This document shows, piece after piece, positions 42,131-53,091 of a DNA stretch of 64,000 bases. The notes beneath the pieces were generated by a model. It did no database searches, was not told the DNA's origin, and saw nothing but the letters and a program-made list of their open reading frames with translations. Origin of the DNA: an uncultured Gammaproteobacteria bacterium (lineage in GTDB: Bacteria > Patescibacteriota > Microgenomatia > Levybacterales > GWA1-39-11). The stretch is taken from NCBI GenBank assembly GCA_964531275.1, contig CAZHDZ010000002.1, forward strand, positions 58,180 through 122,179, given 5' to 3'. Position 1 is the first letter of the stretch, and every line of letters starts with the position of its first letter. A program made the translations under genes and the position numbers.

Positions 42131-42300
42131 ATTGTGGACCCAAGAGGACTCGTTCTGCAACGCAGTGCGAAGCACAATCTGACCTAAAGTATCACGCTCA
42201 ACATGTGATTATTGTGGACGATACAGAATTCGAATCTGTGACCTTTACAATGTCAATGTAACGCTCTACGATTTGCAAAGCAAATTGAGTGCTCCAGCTG
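42131..42300 (-). repeat. Two degenerate partial copies of the tRNA-Val 3' region directly downstream of the intact gene.
   Basis: 42212-42300 retains the D-stem 3' side, an identical anticodon arm (TTACATTGACATTGTAA), and a T-arm and acceptor 3' side (ACAGATTCGAATTCTGT, ATCGTCCA) with compensatory changes, but has no matching acceptor 5' strand. 42135-42152 is an exact 18-nt copy of the T-arm/acceptor 3' end (CGAGTCCTCTTGGGTCCA). All three copies are followed by CAAxA. Confidence 0.6.
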
Positions 42301-42309
42301 AGCTTTTTG

Positions 42310-42384
42310 TGGACCCAAGAGGACTCGAACCTCTGACCTTTACAATGTCAATGTAACGCTCTAACCAAACTGAGCTATGAGTCC
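42310..42384 (-). tRNA. tRNA-Val (anticodon GAC).
   Basis: Minus-strand GGACTCATAGCTCAGTTTGGTTAGAGCGTTACATTGACATTGTAAAGGTCAGAGGTTCGAGTCCTCTTGGGTCCA folds as a cloverleaf with anticodon loop TTGACAT. CCA is not encoded. Confidence 0.8.
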
Positions 42385-43577: not shown

Positions 43578-44588
43578 TTATAGCGAATTTTGAATTATTG
43601 TACTAAGCTCGCCTTCAAAATGTCCTCCTCCAATATCTTTTCGTATAAGGTTAGTTGCGTGGAGTATTTCCGTAAAAGCAGCGCCATGTGGCACGTGAGA
43701 GTGTGCAAGCATACCGTCGGTTAATAAAACGCCGTCTACTAACAGAGGTTCACTATTGTGCGGATAGTAGTGCGGTGTTCTTAAGTTTTTTGACATAAGA
43801 GTAATAGCATTGCTTTCGGCAAGTGTAATAAGCGCGCCATGCCCTCTAAGATTGTTCCTTTCTTGTTCCATAAGGTTTATAAAGGTGTCTTCGCTTTGAG
43901 GAAGAACAAAAAGCGGATTGTTTTTGGGTTTAAAAAGTCCTGCTTCCGTTTCTCCGTATGTAAGACCGTATGCATCATAGTGTGCAAGTAGATAGGACGC
44001 TGCTCCATTTCGCGGATCTCCTGATCTGGCATGCTTACTGGACATATTAAGAAGGGTATTCATGCCTTCTGGGCTTATGCCTTGAGAAGCTTTATCTCCT
44101 TCACTTAGAATACGAAGCGCAGCATCAATACTGTCGTACTCGATTTCAGGTTTTGGAACGGATGGATGAAATCGGTCAAGATATCCATGCGCTACTCTTC
44201 CCAAGAATTGTGCGTTAGTCATGCCCTCTTGCACAGCTACTTCAAGCTCCTCACGAGACCTAGGGTCAATATTTGCAGCTGTATTTATGTGAATTGGGGC
44301 CATGGTTACCCATGACTCAGGTGGTTGATATCCTTTTTCTCTTATACCCTCAATAAGTTGGGCTGTTTCTGCTATGCCAGCTAGCCATCTCATTGGTACC
44401 TGACCATTTACAGAGTGGAGAGTATATATTGTTCTTTCTCCAAGACTATTTGCTTTGAGTGCCTCCCGCCATTTCTGGGCACTATCCCAGTCATACGCCA
44501 TAGTTGGCATATTTGCGTCATTAGGTTTTTCACCCAAGTAGTACTGTTCTAGGTCTAATCTGTATGTTGATAAGTGTTCCATAACCAC
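43578..44588 (-). CDS. Hypothetical protein (336 aa), co-operonic with the M20 peptidase.
   Basis: The ORF starts with GTG at 44588 right after a U7 tract; an in-frame ATG follows 2 codons later. No recognisable motifs. Confidence 0.6.
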   Translation of the reverse strand: MVMEHLSTYRLDLEQYYLGEKPNDANMPTMAYDWDSAQKWREALKANSLGERTIYTLHSVNGQVPMRWLAGIAETAQLIEGIREKGYQPPESWVTMAPIHINTAANIDPRSREELEVAVQEGMTNAQFLGRVAHGYLDRFHPSVPKPEIEYDSIDAALRILSEGDKASQGISPEGMNTLLNMSSKHARSGDPRNGAASYLLAHYDAYGLTYGETEAGLFKPKNNPLFVLPQSEDTFINLMEQERNNLRGHGALITLAESNAITLMSKNLRTPHYYPHNSEPLLVDGVLLTDGMLAHSHVPHGAAFTEILHATNLIRKDIGGGHFEGELSTIIQNSL

Positions 44589-44740
44589 AAAAAAACCCCC
44601 GCTTAGGTCCCGAAATCTGGGACGCGGAGGTTAAAGTTGACCAGCTCAAATCAACCCCCGCTAGGCGAAGGTGTAAGTAAAGTAGAATTGAGCTGTTTTT
44701 AACATTAGATCCATTATACAAAAGCGGATTGATAAATCAA
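44589..44740 (-). promoter_or_regulatory. Promoter (TTGATT-16-TATAAT) plus a ~130-nt structured leader with a terminator/antiterminator-like arrangement directly 5' of the 336-aa gene.
   Basis: Minus strand: -35 at 44735-44740, -10 TATAAT at 44713-44718. The leader holds GCGGGGGUU (decoy), then CCUCCGC-[GUCCC AGAUUUC GGGAC]-CUAA-GCGGGGG-U7, then GUG. Decoy and 5' arm are complementary. Confidence 0.5.
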
Positions 44741-47436: not shown

Positions 47437-49077
47437 TTAATTTAGTCTTGCATTGTGAAGTGCAGTTATGTCAAAAAGTACTCCTCTTAAGTTTTCCCTT
47501 TGTAGTGCTGATTCCTGGCCAGTTGCTTGCTGAAGTACGACTTCTGTCTGGGCTAACATTTCTATGGCATCTTTAAGGTCAGTTCCCTGCGGAACATCAT
47601 ACTCGGTAGCGTAATACACGGGTTTATGTCCGATGTCTGTTATGAGAGATATTCCAATTTGTTCCTGAGGATCTATTAATCTTTGTTCTTCCCAGGCCTC
47701 AACATCATCAGCTACTTGCTGTAAATTTATTCTTTCATCTTGATCTTCACTTTTTGCTATCTTATTTTTTACAAAGTCAACAAGGCCATCTGAATTAGCT
47801 TCACGTCTCAGGAAGTCTCTCACTGCACAAAAATGCCTTTCAGACCTTCCACCAATAGTTATATTTACATCAACTGCTTCGCCCTCGCTCCCAAAATACC
47901 CATCAGAAGGAATTGCTAATTGATCTCGAAAAACCAGGGGGTGTATTGCTGCATATTCGGCTGCATTTTCTGCGCCATTGTCACCACCGTGATTATTGCC
48001 TAATTCCTGAAGCGTAGCGATGGTGTCCATAACTGCAGGATCAGTGCTGCTTTTCAAAAGATGGGCTAGATATTCACGAGCAACTCTAGTTCCCAATTGG
48101 TGTTCATCCCAAGGAACATCTTCCCTGTATTCAACTGCACTACTAATGTCAGGATAGGTACCGTCGATGAATCCTTTCATTGCTTCCATATTCTGTGCAG
48201 TTCTTCCCGGAATTTTTTCAGGATCCATTCGTTGGCTTACAGTATTTATTGCAATTGCAGCTTGATGTGCGAAAAAGAATTCTGCTGTTGGAAGTTGTTG
48301 TAGGATTCCTGCTTTCCTTCTAACCTCTTCCTGTTCATCTCCTGTAAGAACTGCTTCAACACCTATACTGTCAATTTCCTGAGCAATTGAAGCTCTTTGA
48401 CCTTGGGAAAGGAAATCAATATTCAAATACTCTTTCACAGTATCAATACCCTTTTTGTTTGCCGCTTGCCTCATTTTTGTGGATTCTCTTTTGGAATAAA
48501 TTTGTGATAGTCCGTCAAGAATTCGCATAGCTGGAATGCCATACGCCGGAAGTCTTGCGGGTGTAAAGTCATCATCGGAACCACCAAACCCAGTTCGTAT
48601 TGCAACCCTGGTATCAGGGTTTTTAGCCATCATAATGGCAGCTTCTACAACATGAAGAGATTGATTCTGTTGAACCATTGATATGTAGTTGTCTGATCCA
48701 ACTATAACTTTTGTAATTGAAGGAGCAAGTTCTGATATATTGGTAAAAGTATTTCGTGCTTCATCGCTAACAAATTCACCAGTATCAGTAAATAATTCTG
48801 CGCACTGTCTTCTAACAACTTCTGCGCTTTGTGCTATGAATGATCGGCGATATTTCTTCTCAAGTGGCGAAAATGGTGCATTTCCATCAACAAAAACTTT
48901 GATTCGATTGTCTGCATTATCTTCGAAAGGCTTAATAAGTTTTACTTGAAGCGCTTCAAGTTGCTTGTTGGCAACGCCAAAGCTTGCCTCTGCAGGCTGA
49001 ATGCTTGAAAATTCAAATTGTTGTGTTGGTATTTCAGCTGTCATATTTTTCCATTGGTTTGTCTTCTCAAACCACAA
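47437..49077 (-). CDS. Hypothetical protein (546 aa).
   Basis: The long ORF abuts the 526-aa gene (stop and start adjacent). The TTG start at 49077 sits 5 nt after a GGGAGG inside the upstream hairpin; an alternative ATG lies at 49044. Confidence 0.6.
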   Translation of the reverse strand: MWFEKTNQWKNMTAEIPTQQFEFSSIQPAEASFGVANKQLEALQVKLIKPFEDNADNRIKVFVDGNAPFSPLEKKYRRSFIAQSAEVVRRQCAELFTDTGEFVSDEARNTFTNISELAPSITKVIVGSDNYISMVQQNQSLHVVEAAIMMAKNPDTRVAIRTGFGGSDDDFTPARLPAYGIPAMRILDGLSQIYSKRESTKMRQAANKKGIDTVKEYLNIDFLSQGQRASIAQEIDSIGVEAVLTGDEQEEVRRKAGILQQLPTAEFFFAHQAAIAINTVSQRMDPEKIPGRTAQNMEAMKGFIDGTYPDISSAVEYREDVPWDEHQLGTRVAREYLAHLLKSSTDPAVMDTIATLQELGNNHGGDNGAENAAEYAAIHPLVFRDQLAIPSDGYFGSEGEAVDVNITIGGRSERHFCAVRDFLRREANSDGLVDFVKNKIAKSEDQDERINLQQVADDVEAWEEQRLIDPQEQIGISLITDIGHKPVYYATEYDVPQGTDLKDAIEMLAQTEVVLQQATGQESALQRENLRGVLFDITALHNARLN

Positions 49078-49212
49078 AAAAACCTCCCTTTTGGGGAGGT
49101 CGTTAATACACGAAAAACCTCCCCTAGCGCTGGCTAAGAAGGAGGTCTAGTAAGATTACTGAATTTCGTGTCATGTTATGTACCATTATATCAATTCATT
49201 TGTCTTTGACAA
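49074..49212 (-). promoter_or_regulatory. Promoter (TTGTCA-16-TATAAT) plus a leader with two tandem CCUCC/GGAGG hairpins and a U7 tract 5' of the 546-aa gene.
   Basis: Minus strand: -35 at 49207-49212, -10 at 49185-49190. The leader reads GACCUCCUUCUUAGCCAGCGCUAGGGGAGGUUUUU ... GACCUCCCCAAAAGGGAGGUUUUUUUGUGG. The first hairpin's 5' arm (GACCUCCUU) mimics the 16S 3' end. Confidence 0.5.
49076..49099 (-). terminator. Intrinsic-terminator-like hairpin CCUCCC-CAAA-AGGGAGG + U7. It could terminate the 49221 gene and also sequesters the SD of the 546-aa gene.
   Basis: Minus strand CCTCCCCAAAAGGGAGGTTTTTTTGTGG. Confidence 0.55.
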
Positions 49213-49642: not shown

Positions 49643-49700
49643 AAAAAAACCTCCCAAAGTGGGAGGTCAAATTATTATTTTCTCCCACGAAAAGCTACGC
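49643..49700 (-). promoter_or_regulatory. CCUCCCA-CUU-UGGGAGG + U7 hairpin with an upstream decoy (CGUGGGAG), followed by a 14-codon uORF (GUG start) overlapping the start of the acidic-protein gene.
   Basis: Minus strand UUUUCGUGGGAGAAAAUAAUAAUUUGACCUCCCACUUUGGGAGGUUUUUUUGUGCCUUUUAACAAACUAUGGAAAUGG. The decoy GUGGGAG is exactly complementary to the 5' arm CUCCCAC. Confidence 0.45.
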
Positions 49701-49755
49701 CTTGATAAGGTGAAGTCTTCGTGTGTAAGAAAATTGCATGTCCATACGTAATATA

Positions 49756-50151
49756 TTACACTTTTGAGGCTGCAATGTCAATTTCTGCGGTTGCTGCTAT
49801 TTCAACCAAGGCGTTTAGCGGAAGTGACACAACGCCAACTGTGTATCGAGCTGGTTTCGAATCGCCGAGATATTTTGCATACACTTCGTTAAATTTTGCG
49901 TAATTGCTCAAGTCTGATAAAAAACATTGTGTTTGGACAACATCAGAAAGAGAAGATCCCGCCTCCTCAAGAACCGCTTTAAGGTTTGAAATTACTTGCT
50001 CTGTCTGACCTTCAATATCAGCTGCCTCTATCGTGCCACTAATCGGATTTATTCCAATTTGCCCCGAGCAAAAGACAAATCCACCGCTTACGATTGCTTG
50101 CGAATAGGGCCCTACAACTGTCGGTGCCTTAGAGGTAAAGACTGTTTTCAT
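49756..50151 (-). CDS. ridA: RidA (YjgF/TdcF) family reactive-enamine/imine deaminase.
   Basis: 131 aa. The full-length sequence is characteristic of the YjgF fold. It sits immediately downstream of threonine dehydratase (1-nt junction). Confidence 0.85.
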   Translation of the reverse strand: MKTVFTSKAPTVVGPYSQAIVSGGFVFCSGQIGINPISGTIEAADIEGQTEQVISNLKAVLEEAGSSLSDVVQTQCFLSDLSNYAKFNEVYAKYLGDSKPARYTVGVVSLPLNALVEIAATAEIDIAASKV

Positions 50152-51399
50152 TTATATGATGTAATTATACAAAAGATCGCTGTGCTTAATCGGCGTATAG
50201 GAAATACCTATGCTGTCTAGCCTTTTGATTAAAGGCTCGTAGTCATTTTTTGAAGCAAGCTCTATTCCGACCAGTGCAGGGCCGGTCTCTCGGGAAGTTT
50301 TTTTGACATATTCAAATCTGACTATGTCATCCGTAGGTCCAAGAGCTTTGTCTACAAATGCTCGCAGTTGTCCTGGCTTTTGGGCAAATTTAAGAAGAAA
50401 ATAGTGCTTTCTTCCTTGATGTATCAAGCTTCTTTCCATAATCTCCGGGTATCTTAGGATGTCATTATTTCCTCCGCTTAGTACGCAAACAACAGTTTTG
50501 CCTTTTAACTTTTTTTTGAGGCTATATAGGGCTGCGATTGAGAGTGCTCCCGCAGGCTCAGCTACGATCCCCTCATTTTGATAAAGGTCAATCATGGTTG
50601 TACATATTTGCCCCTCAGAAATAAGTACTACTTCTTTCACAAGCCTTTTAATTATTGAAAAGGATATATCCCCGGGCTTTTTAACAGCAGCACCATCTAC
50701 AAATGTATCTATGTGATCAAGCTCTACTACCTCACCCTTTTTAAGGGACTCATACATGCTGGGGGCACCTTCCGGTTCTGCGCCAATGAATACAGTATGA
50801 GGTGAGACATGGGAAAAATATGAACTAACTCCAGACAAGAATCCCCCTCCACCAATTGGAGCAATGAAATAATCGATACTGCTTCCCAATTCTTCATAAA
50901 TTTCTTTTCCTACAGTTCCTTGGCCAGCAATTACATCAATGTCATTGAAAGGATGAACAAAAATAGCGTTTTTCTTTTCGCACACCTCTATGGCTTTTTT
51001 GTAAGCTTCGTCATACGTATTGCCAAACAACTCAATAGTTATATGTGAGTTGCCAAACTCTCTGACTCTTTTTATTTTTTGTAACGGGGTCGTTGTGGGC
51101 ATAAAAATTGTTGTTGAAATTCCTAGTTCTTTTGCAGCAAATGCAACTCCTTGTGCATGATTGCCTGCGCTTGCTGCGACTACTCCTTGCTGTCTCTCCT
51201 TTGGGGTTAGCATGGACATTTTGTTGTAGGCACCTCGTATTTTGTATGATCTAACGATCTGCTGGTCTTCTCTCTTAATATAAACTTGAGCCTCAAATTC
51301 TTGAGATAGACGCTCTGAAAGCATAAGCTCGGTGCGTTTTACGGTACCGCTTAGTCTTTTGGCTGCTTCGTTAATATGATTAAGAGTTATTACGTTCAT
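50152..51399 (-). CDS. ilvA: Threonine dehydratase (PLP-dependent; catalytic domain plus C-terminal regulatory ACT-like domain).
   Basis: PLP-lysine motif VRSYKIRGAYNKM, ASAGNHAQGVA, and a G-rich PLP loop GGGGF. 415 aa. Confidence 0.85.
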   Translation of the reverse strand: MNVITLNHINEAAKRLSGTVKRTELMLSERLSQEFEAQVYIKREDQQIVRSYKIRGAYNKMSMLTPKERQQGVVAASAGNHAQGVAFAAKELGISTTIFMPTTTPLQKIKRVREFGNSHITIELFGNTYDEAYKKAIEVCEKKNAIFVHPFNDIDVIAGQGTVGKEIYEELGSSIDYFIAPIGGGGFLSGVSSYFSHVSPHTVFIGAEPEGAPSMYESLKKGEVVELDHIDTFVDGAAVKKPGDISFSIIKRLVKEVVLISEGQICTTMIDLYQNEGIVAEPAGALSIAALYSLKKKLKGKTVVCVLSGGNNDILRYPEIMERSLIHQGRKHYFLLKFAQKPGQLRAFVDKALGPTDDIVRFEYVKKTSRETGPALVGIELASKNDYEPLIKRLDSIGISYTPIKHSDLLYNYII

Positions 51400-51586
51400 T
51401 CCATAAGCAAAGCTTGTGTCTTTTCAAGCCAATCCCTGTCTTTCAAAGCCATAAAAAAACCTCCCATTTTTGGGAGGTCGTGCGTCTTAAAAGATCAACA
51501 CCCTCCCTAGGAAGGAATAATAATGTCGATAATTTGAAGACTTCGGTGCATAAAAGTAATGTACTACTGCTAGGGAAAAAAGTCAA
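51400..51586 (-). promoter_or_regulatory. ilvA leader: candidate promoter (TTGACT-17-TACATT), three-segment GGGAGGG / CCUCCCA / GGGAGG-U7 switch, and an 18-codon uORF whose stop overlaps the ilvA AUG (AUGA).
   Basis: Minus strand CCUUCCUAGGGAGGGUG...CGACCUCCCAAAAAUGGGAGGUUUUUUUAUGGCUUUGAAAGAC...CUUAUGGAAUGAACG. The hairpin's 3' arm GGGAGG is the SD of the uORF at 7-nt spacing. Confidence 0.45.
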
Positions 51587-51626
51587 TTGGGATTGACATA
51601 TTGGGCTAATTTGATATGATTTATTC

Positions 51627-51752
51627 AACGTGAAAAATTGTACATACATGAGAACTTCCCATTTCGGCACTCGATGCTGAGGGAATTTCTGTGTTTGTTC
51701 AATTTTCAAAACGAGCTCAAGAACTTCCCGCCAGCAAGGGAAGTTTTTTTTT
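51627..51752 (+). ncRNA. Candidate small RNA (~125 nt) with a consensus sigma70 promoter and a Rho-independent terminator.
   Basis: -35 TTGACA at 51593-51598, 16-nt spacer, -10 TATGAT at 51615-51620. The terminator is CUUCCC-GCCAGCAA-GGGAAG + U9 at 51724-51752. The body has two related hairpins sharing the 5' arm GAACUUCCC. No ORF of plausible composition. Confidence 0.45.
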
Positions 51753-51949
51753 GGGCTTTTTTTGGCTCTTTCACTTATCAAAGCGTTCGAAAATGCATTT
51801 TCGCACGCTACCATGTATTCGTCTTGGGAAGCTTTGTTTCCCGTAAGCCATAACGACCAACATTCATACAGGAGAGGTGTCCTTTGGCAGTCCCGAGCAT
51901 GTCGCTTGCAGAACTTTCGGCTGTTGCCGACTCCAACGGGGTGATTTGG

Positions 51950-52345
51950 TCATCCCACGTCAACTGCTCTAAGCCCTGGTTGGGCTACGGAGTGAACCTG
52001 ATTCTAGGCGAGAAAAACGCGGCAGAGGTCGACTTTTCTTTCTGTAAGGAAGTCTGGCAAAAACCCCCGCAGGGGTGGACTGTCCTTCTTCGCGTTGAGC
52101 GAGACGCATGCGAGGCGCACATGATGCGCCTGAAGCCAACCGGGGAGAACGAAACGTTCTTCTTCATGAGGGCCAGGGTTAACCTGAGCTCAAGCCCGAC
52201 ATGGATGAGTCTGGCTGGGACTGGGCTTGTCCGGACCAGGACTTACCGCGCAGGTATGCGTCGGAACAAGAACCGCGTGTCGGTTGGTCGCGTAAAACGT
52301 GAGTCGGTTACAGAGGAGGTATAAGTGAACAAACGTGGGTTGAGT
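51950..52345 (-). ncRNA. rnpB: RNase P RNA (bacterial type-A-like).
   Basis: Minus strand contains GGUAAGUCCUGG (P4 5' strand; cf. GGAAAGUCCGGG). CCAGGGCUUAGAGCAGUUGACGUGGG forms the P4 3' strand and 3' end (cf. CCCGGCUUAUCGGUCAGUUUCACC). UCAGGUUAACCCUGG matches CCAGGUAACGCCUGG, GGCGCAUCAUGUGCGCC is P12-like, and ACAGUCCACCCCUGCGGGGG is present. P1 is CCCACGU/ACGUGGG. ~900 bp lacks any credible ORF. Confidence 0.6.
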
Positions 52346-52413
52346 AAAAGTTGGCAAGTTCTACTTGCTGGCCGCTTGCAGTTTTTGCAAGCACTCGACC
52401 CCATTTCTTAGAT

Positions 52414-53091
52414 TTAGCCGCTTTGAGTTGCTACTGCACGGTCAATATTCTGAGTGAAGCTGGTTCCACCCTTTTTAGCCATAGCTTGATATCCTTTTTC
52501 GGCTTTTCGTCCTTTGAATAATTTGGCGTATGTCACGCCATCTTGCACCTTATCTCTCATCTTTATAACTAACTTCAAAAATCCCTCATAGAAGGTAAGG
52601 TGATAAACTCCAGGTTTGTCTGGAACATCGTCAATAACTACGTCTTTGAATACATTTTCAAGTTCATCTGATGAATCTTTAAGATTTCTAAGTTCTGCAA
52701 GAATTTGTTCTAATTGTTGTTTTATACCAAGAGATGCTTCGTCTGATTTTCGTCCTTCAGTTGCACCCTTGAATTCAGCGAAATACTGCATATGCTCTGC
52801 AGTAACTTCTACTTTTTGATGAGATTCGCTACCGTCATGAGATTCTTCTTTTTTATGTCCACCAACTGAGTGTGCCTCACCGTGCTTGAGTTCAATTCCG
52901 AAAACTTGGTTGATAACGACATTGAATTCAGTCTTTGCTTCACCTGCAACAACTTTTTGTGCAGTTTTAATTGCTTCCGTGTCTACAATCTTGGGTTTTT
53001 TTGCAGATTCAAAGAACTTCTTAAAAATAGAAGTTGCGTCGTGAATCCTTTCCTCTCCAGTGTATTTGGGTGTTCCCCCTTGTTTTTTCAT
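52414..53091 (-). CDS. Hypothetical Lys/Glu-rich protein (225 aa).
   Basis: Clean ORF. A tandem-repeat promoter region lies upstream. Confidence 0.5.
   Translation of the reverse strand: MKKQGGTPKYTGEERIHDATSIFKKFFESAKKPKIVDTEAIKTAQKVVAGEAKTEFNVVINQVFGIELKHGEAHSVGGHKKEESHDGSESHQKVEVTAEHMQYFAEFKGATEGRKSDEASLGIKQQLEQILAELRNLKDSSDELENVFKDVVIDDVPDKPGVYHLTFYEGFLKLVIKMRDKVQDGVTYAKLFKGRKAEKGYQAMAKKGGTSFTQNIDRAVATQSG

Follow-up and report, generated by a model that had tools for sequence, protein, structure and literature searches.

A putative isoleucine-responsive leader-peptide attenuator upstream of ilvA in an uncultivated member of the Patescibacteria

What decides whether RNA polymerase that starts upstream of ilvA goes on to transcribe that gene? 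The question is raised by a 64,000-nucleotide (nt) stretch of contig CAZHDZ010000002.1 (assembly GCA_964531275.1), referred to here as the window, on whose minus strand the gene for threonine dehydratase, ilvA (50152..51399), follows a short leader with several mutually complementary segments. The initial annotation read this leader as a three-segment RNA switch with a translationally coupled upstream open reading frame (uORF), and set aside the classic Ile/Val-rich leader-peptide attenuator. We argue instead, with a probability that we put at roughly 0.85, that the ilvA leader is a ribosome-mediated leader-peptide transcription attenuator sensing charged tRNA-Ile. Isoleucine would be the logical signal, since IlvA bears a regulatory domain of the Ile-feedback type. 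The mechanism itself is textbook, and for ilvA the finding mainly corrects an interpretation; the leader is of an ordinary kind, and its one novelty is where it is found, in an uncultivated bacterium of the candidate phyla radiation (CPR) with sister copies of the element nearby.

The leader reading frame and its RNA segments

What had been missed is a 14-codon open reading frame (ORF) followed by UAG, MHRSLQIIDIIIPS*, which is read directly from the minus strand at 51551..51507. Its codons (ATG CAC CGA AGT CTT CAA ATT ATC GAC ATT ATT ATT CCT TCC TAG) include five for isoleucine among the 14 (51533..51528 and 51524..51516), which lie 1-9 nt upstream of the CCUUCC that the initial annotation had recognized as a pairing arm. 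That arm is nothing other than the final two sense codons of the leader ORF, the UAG is the loop of the CCUUCC/GGAGGG hairpin, and the ORF overlaps segment 1 of the switch. With Ile-rich homologues of this ORF in every close relative (see below), the judgement that this is not a classic Ile/Val-rich leader-peptide attenuator finds no support.

A sigma-70-type promoter is predicted at 51558..51586 on the same strand (-35 TTGACT at 51586..51581, a 17-nt spacer and -10 TACATT at 51563..51558; 9/12 match). With 6 nt between the end of the -10 box and the leader AUG (51551), the ilvA mRNA is probably leaderless, starting at or next to that AUG, to judge from -10 spacing. No Shine-Dalgarno (SD) sequence precedes the leader ORF. 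Across the window, 29 of the 33 long ORFs have no SD-like motif, and a TAnnnT box stands 5-9 nt upstream of the start codon in 10 of the 33, against 4.3% of internal start-like codons; because -10 boxes just before starts are thus enriched, leaderless initiation appears to be normal here, and the pattern suggests that this CPR genome commonly makes leaderless mRNAs. Good SDs are few in the window and tend, as a separate observation, to be the 3' arms of attenuator terminators. The palindrome GTCAAT-N4-ATTGAC that the initial annotation placed around a shared -35 box is present, but it arises from two back-to-back -35 boxes, TTGACT on the minus strand and TTGACA (51593) on the plus strand. We considered it as an operator and rejected that role: it is not conserved, and it is missing where the divergent gene is missing.

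The segments as first described (CCUUCC, GGGAGGG, CCUCCCA and GGGAGG-U7) are all there. Read along the minus strand they are CCTTCC (51515..51510), TAG (51509..51507), GGAGGG (51506..51501), a spacer of 23 nt rather than the 24 claimed, CCTCCCA (51477..51471), AAAA, TGGGAGG (51466..51460), T7 (51459..51453) and ATG GCT from 51452. We divide this stretch into four segments. Segment 1 (51510..51541), as taken from the minimum-free-energy (MFE) structure, is the 5' strand of an extended anti-antiterminator and comprises leader codons 4-9 and the apical CCUUCC (51515..51510). Segment 2 (51484..51507) consists of GGGAGGG and the spacer UGUUGAUCUUUUAAGAC, and can pair either with segment 1 (the OFF state) or, through GGGAGGGUGU (51507..51498), with segment 3 (the ON state). 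Segment 3 (51471..51483; GCAC-GA-CCUCCC-A) serves in both structures, in the terminator as the 5' arm (51479..51471) and in the antiterminator as the 3' strand (GCAC at 51483..51480, CCUCCC at 51477..51472). Segment 4 (51453..51466) joins UGGGAGGUU (51466..51458) to the U7 tract (51459..51453) and forms the intrinsic terminator's 3' arm; its GGGAGG is also SD-like, 7 nt upstream of the AUG at 51452.

The 211-nt leader region folds at z = -3.1 relative to shuffled sequences. In the MFE fold, codons 4-9 pair with the spacer 3' of GGAGGG, giving a long 1:2 hairpin that is followed by the 3:4 terminator. The 1:2 hairpin has a predicted energy of -18.5 kcal/mol for nt 1-72 alone, and of -19.5 kcal/mol on the nascent RNA (nt 1-85) when no ribosome is present. 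The terminator, GACCUCCCA-AAAA-UGGGAGGUU (51479..51458) with its U7, comes to about -14.5 kcal/mol (-14.8 in the MFE fold), and a terminator scanner calls the hairpin and its T-run as such; the antiterminator that GGGAGGGUGU makes with GCAC and CCUCCC comes to -15.3 kcal/mol. When the nascent nt 1-85 are folded with the footprint of a ribosome masked, an A site on Ile codon 10 or 11 lets the antiterminator form (-15.3 kcal/mol). Placed at the stop codon, the ribosome masks segment 2, and then nothing is paired and the terminator has no competitor. In these masked folds the RNA does what attenuation would demand of it. The motif CCTCCC-N2-8-GGGAGG occurs three times in the window, with 0.00 occurrences expected.

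These elements suggest the following sequence of events. The first transcribed nucleotide would be the A of the leader AUG (51551) or one no more than 1-2 nt away, and a ribosome would load directly on the mRNA's 5' end and translate MHRSLQIIDIIIPS. With Ile-tRNA plentiful, that ribosome would reach the UAG in the 1:2 loop and cover GGGAGGG (segment 2); its departure would let the 1:2 hairpin re-form, and in either case segment 3 would be free for segment 4, so that the 9-bp 3:4 hairpin and U7 would end transcription after ~99 nt. With Ile-tRNA scarce, the ribosome would stall on the AUU/AUC codons with the lower 1:2 stem melted and CCUUCC covered, segment 2 (GGGAGGGUGU) would pair with GCAC..CCUCCC of segment 3 ahead of the synthesis of segment 4, and the polymerase would read on into ilvA-ridA. 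The same switch would mask or expose the SD-like GGGAGG.

Conservation among relatives and competing explanations

For comparison, 175 related loci (designated by L numbers) were retrieved. All IlvA relatives with at least 65% identity and at least 150 nt of upstream sequence have a 13-16-codon Ile-rich ORF in the same place: MNKNLQMNDIIITS in the 88% relative, and MNQNLQLIDIIIPS, MQRNLHIIDIIIPS, MKRNLHMIGIIIPS, MKFKGIILGIITS, MSKIIKINKIIILP and MIKKCKMINIAIIVPL in other close ones. Such an ORF is also found in many relatives with 58-64% identity (for example, MNKNQIIAITITLL, MNKNQIITITTIPS, MNMKFAGIIGIIITR and MKSIFAGIINIITTR) and, as MVTATRAGASIIGIT, in a GC-rich group labelled Chloroflexota/Dormibacterota; the loci with homologous Ile-rich ORFs include L081, L082, L083-85, L166/167, L168, L169, L171, L002, L006 and L063. 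An automatic scan for an Ile-rich short ORF together with a terminator found the combination in 32 of 162 ilvA upstream regions, compared with 2 of 886 control windows. In the loci without an attenuator leader that were inspected, ilvA mostly lies directly behind another coding region.

The architecture of these leaders is as constant as their reading frame. Eighteen of the 19 folded leaders measure 92-102 nt between the AUG and the end of the U-run (the exception, 81 nt in L003, is a case in which the automatic U-run search stopped at an earlier T-run), and in all 19 the stop codon lies in or beside the apical loop of the 1:2 hairpin. In the automated scan, 28 of 32 leaders have a TAnnnT -10 box at 5-9 nt before their start; by eye it is 6-8 nt upstream in 15 of 19, usually with TTGAC(A/T) 17 nt further upstream.

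The position of the promoter and the constancy of the ORF bear on the most prosaic account of the hairpin, namely that it is a constitutive terminator of an upstream unit (the DUF5660 gene or the divergent unit), with the Ile-rich ORF a chance product of AT-rich sequence. It is true that the DUF5660 gene of L083 and L166 stops ~130 nt upstream of ilvA, and that between it and the leader there is no terminator that could serve it. Yet all relatives have a promoter between the DUF5660 gene and the hairpin, and a constitutive terminator right after the sole ilvA promoter would silence the gene. Relatives moreover preserve the ORF and its frame, the Ile run and the placing of the stop in the hairpin loop while the nucleotides change, and the false-positive rate of the scan, 0.2%, speaks against a chance ORF. 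We regard this explanation as the least probable of those considered.

The pairings that attenuation calls for are conserved as well. A terminator was found in all 18 leaders analysed, and in 17 of them the RNA between the stop codon and the terminator loop adopts an antiterminator fold that uses the terminator's 5' arm, with energies of -11 to -19 kcal/mol for the antiterminators and -9 to -15 kcal/mol for the terminators. The sequences of the arms vary by lineage (CCUCCC, UCCCG, ACAACCCC, CCCGC and AUUCCCGC), and segment 3 co-varies with both of its partners, segments 2 and 4. At stem position 3, pairing 3:4 is by U-A in nine leaders and by C-G in seven, and pairing 2:3 by A-U in eight and by G-C in seven; the corresponding figures at stem position 4 are C-G in 12 and G-C in four for 3:4, and G-C in 11 and C-G in four for 2:3. 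(Positions were anchored on the U-run and taken from per-sequence folds. An alignment of 17 leaders by MAFFT and RNAalifold was discarded; it was out of structural register and gave seven pairs only.) Cognate duplexes are also more stable than non-cognate ones, with permutation p = 0.0002 for 2:3 and p = 0.001 for 1:2, and the lower 1:2 stem shows compensatory changes in L081, L082 and L083. The three mutually exclusive pairings that the initial annotation proposed are in this sense real: the segments are kept in the ilvA leaders of relatives, with compensatory changes. The sequence elements, their conservation and their co-variation are matters of observation.

Does the hairpin end transcription, or does it act purely in translation, sequestering an SD until translation of the upstream short ORF opens it? 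Within the group of leaders with CCUCCC/GGGAGG arms the 3' arm reads as a perfect SD, and 7 nt downstream of it comes a start codon (L083, L166, L171 and the uORF of the window). Genuine SDs are otherwise scarce here (4 of 33 long ORFs), several of them lying inside such hairpins. In L002, L006, L009, L010, L018, L028 and L070, on the other hand, a GC-rich stem followed by 6-7 U is kept where the 3' arm is not SD-like (GCGGGG or GCGGGU), and ilvA begins 8-18 nt or ~100 nt past the U-run. Retention of stem and U-run without an SD-like arm is the signature of an intrinsic terminator and not of an SD mask, and we consider a purely translational device improbable, if the least improbable of the alternatives to attenuation; SD masking may operate additionally in the CCUCCC/GGGAGG group.

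What, then, of the 18-codon uORF, which was described as the coupled partner of ilvA? It exists, MALKDRDWLEKTQALLME* (51396..51452, minus strand), and its TGA overlaps the ilvA ATG (51399..51397) as ATGA (51399..51396), but as a conserved regulatory part it does not stand: 16 relatives have no uORF, and ilvA starts 0-18 nt, or ~100 nt, after the U-run in them. L083 and L166 read GGGAGG-U7-AUG GGA AAA, L082 reads U7-AUG GCU UUU and L081 reads U7-GUG GCU AUG AAC, all at the start of ilvA; the window reads ATGGCT, 47 extra nt and ATGAAC. Comparison with L081, L082 and L083 accordingly points to a 47-nt insertion, TGGCTTTGAAAGACAGGGATTGGCTTGAAAAGACACAAGC (51400..51446, minus strand), that throws the old ilvA start codon out of frame and so gives rise to the uORF, which to judge from these sequences is a peculiarity of one lineage outside the conserved mechanism. 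The insertion is homologous to a repeat behind a Leu-type sister attenuator of the closest relative (L081, 3541-3640), which suggests that it derives from recombination between paralogous attenuators. It is built from two copies of a GGCTT(T)GAAA(A)GACA module; repeats of this module also occur behind the Leu attenuator in L081 (3525..3660), and a degenerate copy lies behind the window's own Leu terminator (49075..49055). The insertion would part the SD and the old start codon from ilvA. Since ilvA has no SD of its own, it is reasonable to expect reinitiation at the AUGA overlap, and ilvA is probably translated in this way. Assembly error as the source of the frame-shifted uORF was rejected: in an independent (Logan) assembly, L172, the leader is identical, uORF included, with the proviso that this contig may stem from the same reads as the assembly of the window.

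The absence of the uORF from relatives also weakens the account in which it is integral: a three-segment switch with no leader peptide, flipped by a ligand, a protein or a tRNA in the manner of a T-box. That the three pairings exist and are conserved, and that an SD-like GGGAGG stands 7 nt before an AUG, fits such a switch; a conserved in-frame Ile-rich ORF lying over segment 1 in all close relatives is left unexplained by it, and with 99 nt the leader has no room for Stem I. Nor does the suggested T-box-like interaction find support. No T-box or other riboswitch appears in an Rfam scan of the whole window at gathering thresholds or in a scan of 51200..52600 at E (expect value) <= 10, no T-box was found in a scan of 20 relatives, and a motif search found no T-box core near the leader, the approximate core matches in the window lying at 5.7 and 19.7 kb and nowhere else. 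The nearest Rfam family is Phe_leader (RF01859; 26.4 bits compared with a threshold of 55, E = 0.08), itself a leader-peptide attenuator; the other Rfam amino-acid leader families give no match, and none reaches its gathering threshold. We rate a ligand-, protein- or tRNA-operated switch as very unlikely, about on a par with, if marginally above, the constitutive terminator.

Several points weigh against leader-peptide attenuation all the same. The full RNA at equilibrium favours the terminator even with its 5' part masked (-20.2 compared with -15.3 kcal/mol), and antitermination must therefore be kinetic. This is usual for attenuators, that of the E. coli trp operon included. L011, a GC-rich leader of the Chloroflexota type, has no 2:3 pairing in a simple fold; the co-variation tests carry no correction for phylogeny; and the 47-nt insertion with its uORF is without parallel in relatives. 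The model also relies on inference for where transcription starts, for termination and read-through, and for ribosome stalling and translational coupling.

Relation to known amino-acid leaders

The leader peptides of E. coli, ilvL (ilvGMEDA), ivbL (ilvBN) and trpL/pheL/hisL/thrL/leuL, are encoded by short ORFs rich in codons for the end product, with alternative 1:2, 2:3 and 3:4 pairings and an intrinsic terminator and U-run before the first structural gene; threonine dehydratase is among the genes that they regulate. The ilvA leader resembles these in its end-product-rich ORF, its four segments, its terminator and U-run and its threonine dehydratase target. It differs in having no sequence homology to them and no Rfam model at threshold, in being enriched for Ile codons alone where E. 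coli is multivalent for Ile, Val and Leu, in a leader ORF that has no SD and apparently lies at the very 5' end of the mRNA, in an operon consisting of ilvA-ridA only and in a terminator 3' arm that doubles as the SD of the next ORF. The usual Ile sensor of ilv genes in Firmicutes is the T-box riboswitch (RF00230), which shares with the ilvA leader a choice between terminator and antiterminator that is driven by tRNA charging; the ilvA leader has no Stem I, specifier loop, T-box sequence or Rfam match, and its sensor would be the translating ribosome rather than an RNA-tRNA contact.

The closest formal parallels are leaderless leader peptides: ilvL, leuL and trpL of Streptomyces lividans act in attenuators (PMC8079986), and 14 are predicted in Deinococcus deserti (PMC4007540). 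In both organisms the transcription start coincides with the start codon of the peptide, 10-20 codons are followed by hairpins and a U-stretch, and leaderless mRNAs are common in the genome (PMC8079986, PMC4007540). The ilvA leader likewise has its start codon at the predicted start of the transcript, and leaderless mRNAs are apparently common here too; it differs in coming from a Levybacteria-like member of the Patescibacteria/CPR phylum, in a start site that is inferred from -10 spacing only, and in serving ilvA-ridA rather than ilvBHC or aminoacyl-tRNA synthetase genes. Leaderless polycysteine short ORFs of mycobacteria, as described in a preprint (bioRxiv 10.1101/834739), provide another example of a run of codons for one amino acid controlling a downstream operon in response to it; the amino acid is a different one, and in the ilvA leader the conserved core is the canonical stem with U7.

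No report on leader-peptide attenuation in Patescibacteria/CPR was found in the searchable literature. If the attenuation model is true, it would mean that transcription and translation are coupled closely enough in these reduced, host-dependent bacteria to permit attenuation, that leaderless initiation serves the sensor ORF, and that one module is reused for several amino acids.

Sister modules and the surrounding locus

The last of these points rests on at least four sister modules in the window, each built from a -10 box and a short ORF, then a 1:2 hairpin whose loop holds the stop codon, a terminator with a U-run, and finally a start codon, and with fold z-scores of -3.6 to -6.2. With ilvA's own there are thus at least five (Ile, Leu, Phe/Tyr and two without clear specificity), and several of them precede orphan rather than biosynthetic genes. 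It is possible, and we put it tentatively at somewhat below even odds, that the ilvA leader belongs to a paralogous family of leaderless attenuators that forms a main amino-acid-sensing system of small CPR genomes. Regulatory codons in front of proteins without a family would then be a rare and testable functional clue for CPR orphan genes; were that reading true, they could help to tell what CPR 'dark matter' proteins do. Sequence searches of Pfam, NCBIfam and the PDB gave no match for the orphans that follow the sister modules.

The Leu-type module (49076..49212, minus strand) has the promoter TTGTCA-16-TATAAT (49212..49185), the short ORF MTRNSVILLDLLLSQR* (49174..49124) with five Leu codons, a 1:2 hairpin that contains CUC CUU CUU codons, and the terminator GACCUCCCC-AAAA-GGGAGGUU with U7, ending at 49076. 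An alternative view of this element as two tandem terminators was rejected, since the first hairpin folds as the 1:2 structure. The gene that follows encodes a 535-aa orphan from a family of seven members among 5.8 billion proteins; its true start is probably the ATG at 49044. A Leu leader lies behind ridA in eight genomes, including L081, L082, L083, L166, L168, L169 and L170, and the genes downstream of it are non-homologous. A conserved link between the Leu leader and the 535-aa orphan was rejected: the distant homologues L173 and L174 have hairpin-U7-AUG, and their short ORFs are not Leu-rich.

The Phe/Tyr-type module (44586..44718, minus strand) reads -10 TATAAT (44718..44713), 7 nt and ATG (44705), with the short ORF MLKTAQFYFTYTFA* extending to 44661; its UAG stop is followed by CGGGGG, and the terminator is CCUCCGC...GCGGGGG with U7 (44630..44589). 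It would regulate a gene for a 334-aa orphan, P0128 (43578..44582, minus strand), which is followed by an M20 peptidase gene. In L175, which has a 36%-identical homologue of this orphan, the leader is MTTFIKNLFFFFFFIPGKREI* and the gene order is the same. The family numbers about 20 members among 1.84 billion cluster representatives. An AlphaFold model of the orphan (predicted local distance difference test score, pLDDT, 88) has tyrosyl- or tryptophanyl-tRNA synthetases (TyrRS or TrpRS) as 49 of its top 50 PDB matches, the odd one being a de novo designed esterase; Foldseek E values reach 1.8e-5, at a template-modelling (TM) score of ~0.45 and ~10% identity, and no HIGH or KMSKS motif was found in the protein. 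This rare family offers the clearest case for reading function from regulatory codons: a Phe-rich leader in two genomes whose orphans are 36% identical, together with the M20 peptidase that follows, suggests that this protein of predicted TyrRS/TrpRS fold may act in phenylalanine supply or in the use of Phe-tRNA.

For the two remaining modules no such assignment is offered. One, which the initial annotation had listed as a divergent sRNA (small RNA), is on the plus strand at 51593..51760: its promoter is TTGACA-16-TATGAT, its short ORF starts with GTG (51630..51680; MKNCTYMRTSHFGTRC*), its terminator is at 51722..51752, and its segments are GAACUUCCC / GGGAAUUUC / GAACUUCCC / GGGAAGU9 (fold z = -4.7). 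It is kept in L081 and L169, and its regulatory codon is not evident. Behind it lies a 146-aa ORF (51884..52324, plus strand) in a stretch of 55-60% GC within a genome of ~40% GC; this ORF is fast-evolving, with 20-27% identity to homologues in the relative whose IlvA is 88% identical, and matched no known family. The other is located between ridA and orf134 (49643..49760, minus strand), with -10 TAATAT, 7 nt, ATG (49745) and the short ORF MDMQFSYTRRLHLIKA* extending to 49695. Its GUGGGAG is complementary to CUCCCAC of the terminator (49668..49643), and after the U7 a GUG-initiated ORF of 14 codons overlaps the orf134 start out of frame. It is kept in L081 (MNMQFSFSRKLSFIKL*), and no amino acid is clearly enriched.

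The regulated operon itself, ilvA-ridA (49756..51399, minus strand), is a pair that relatives keep. Pfam identifies the domains of IlvA as PALP and Thr_dehydrat_C, the latter being the C-terminal regulatory domain, and ridA (49756..50151, minus strand) is the downstream partner. DUF5660 and DUF5665 genes flank the locus. The host is placed in the CPR (Patescibacteria), the named IlvA homologues coming mostly from Levybacteria and neighbouring groups. Elsewhere in the window, a weak tRNA-like match at 42221..42285 (minus strand; 31 bits compared with an Rfam threshold of 29, model positions 6-65) lies beside a tRNA-Val (42309..42384); ARAGORN gives no call for it, and it may be a truncated or degenerate tRNA. 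A single ORF of ~8234 codons (77..about 24780, plus strand) fills the first 25 kb.

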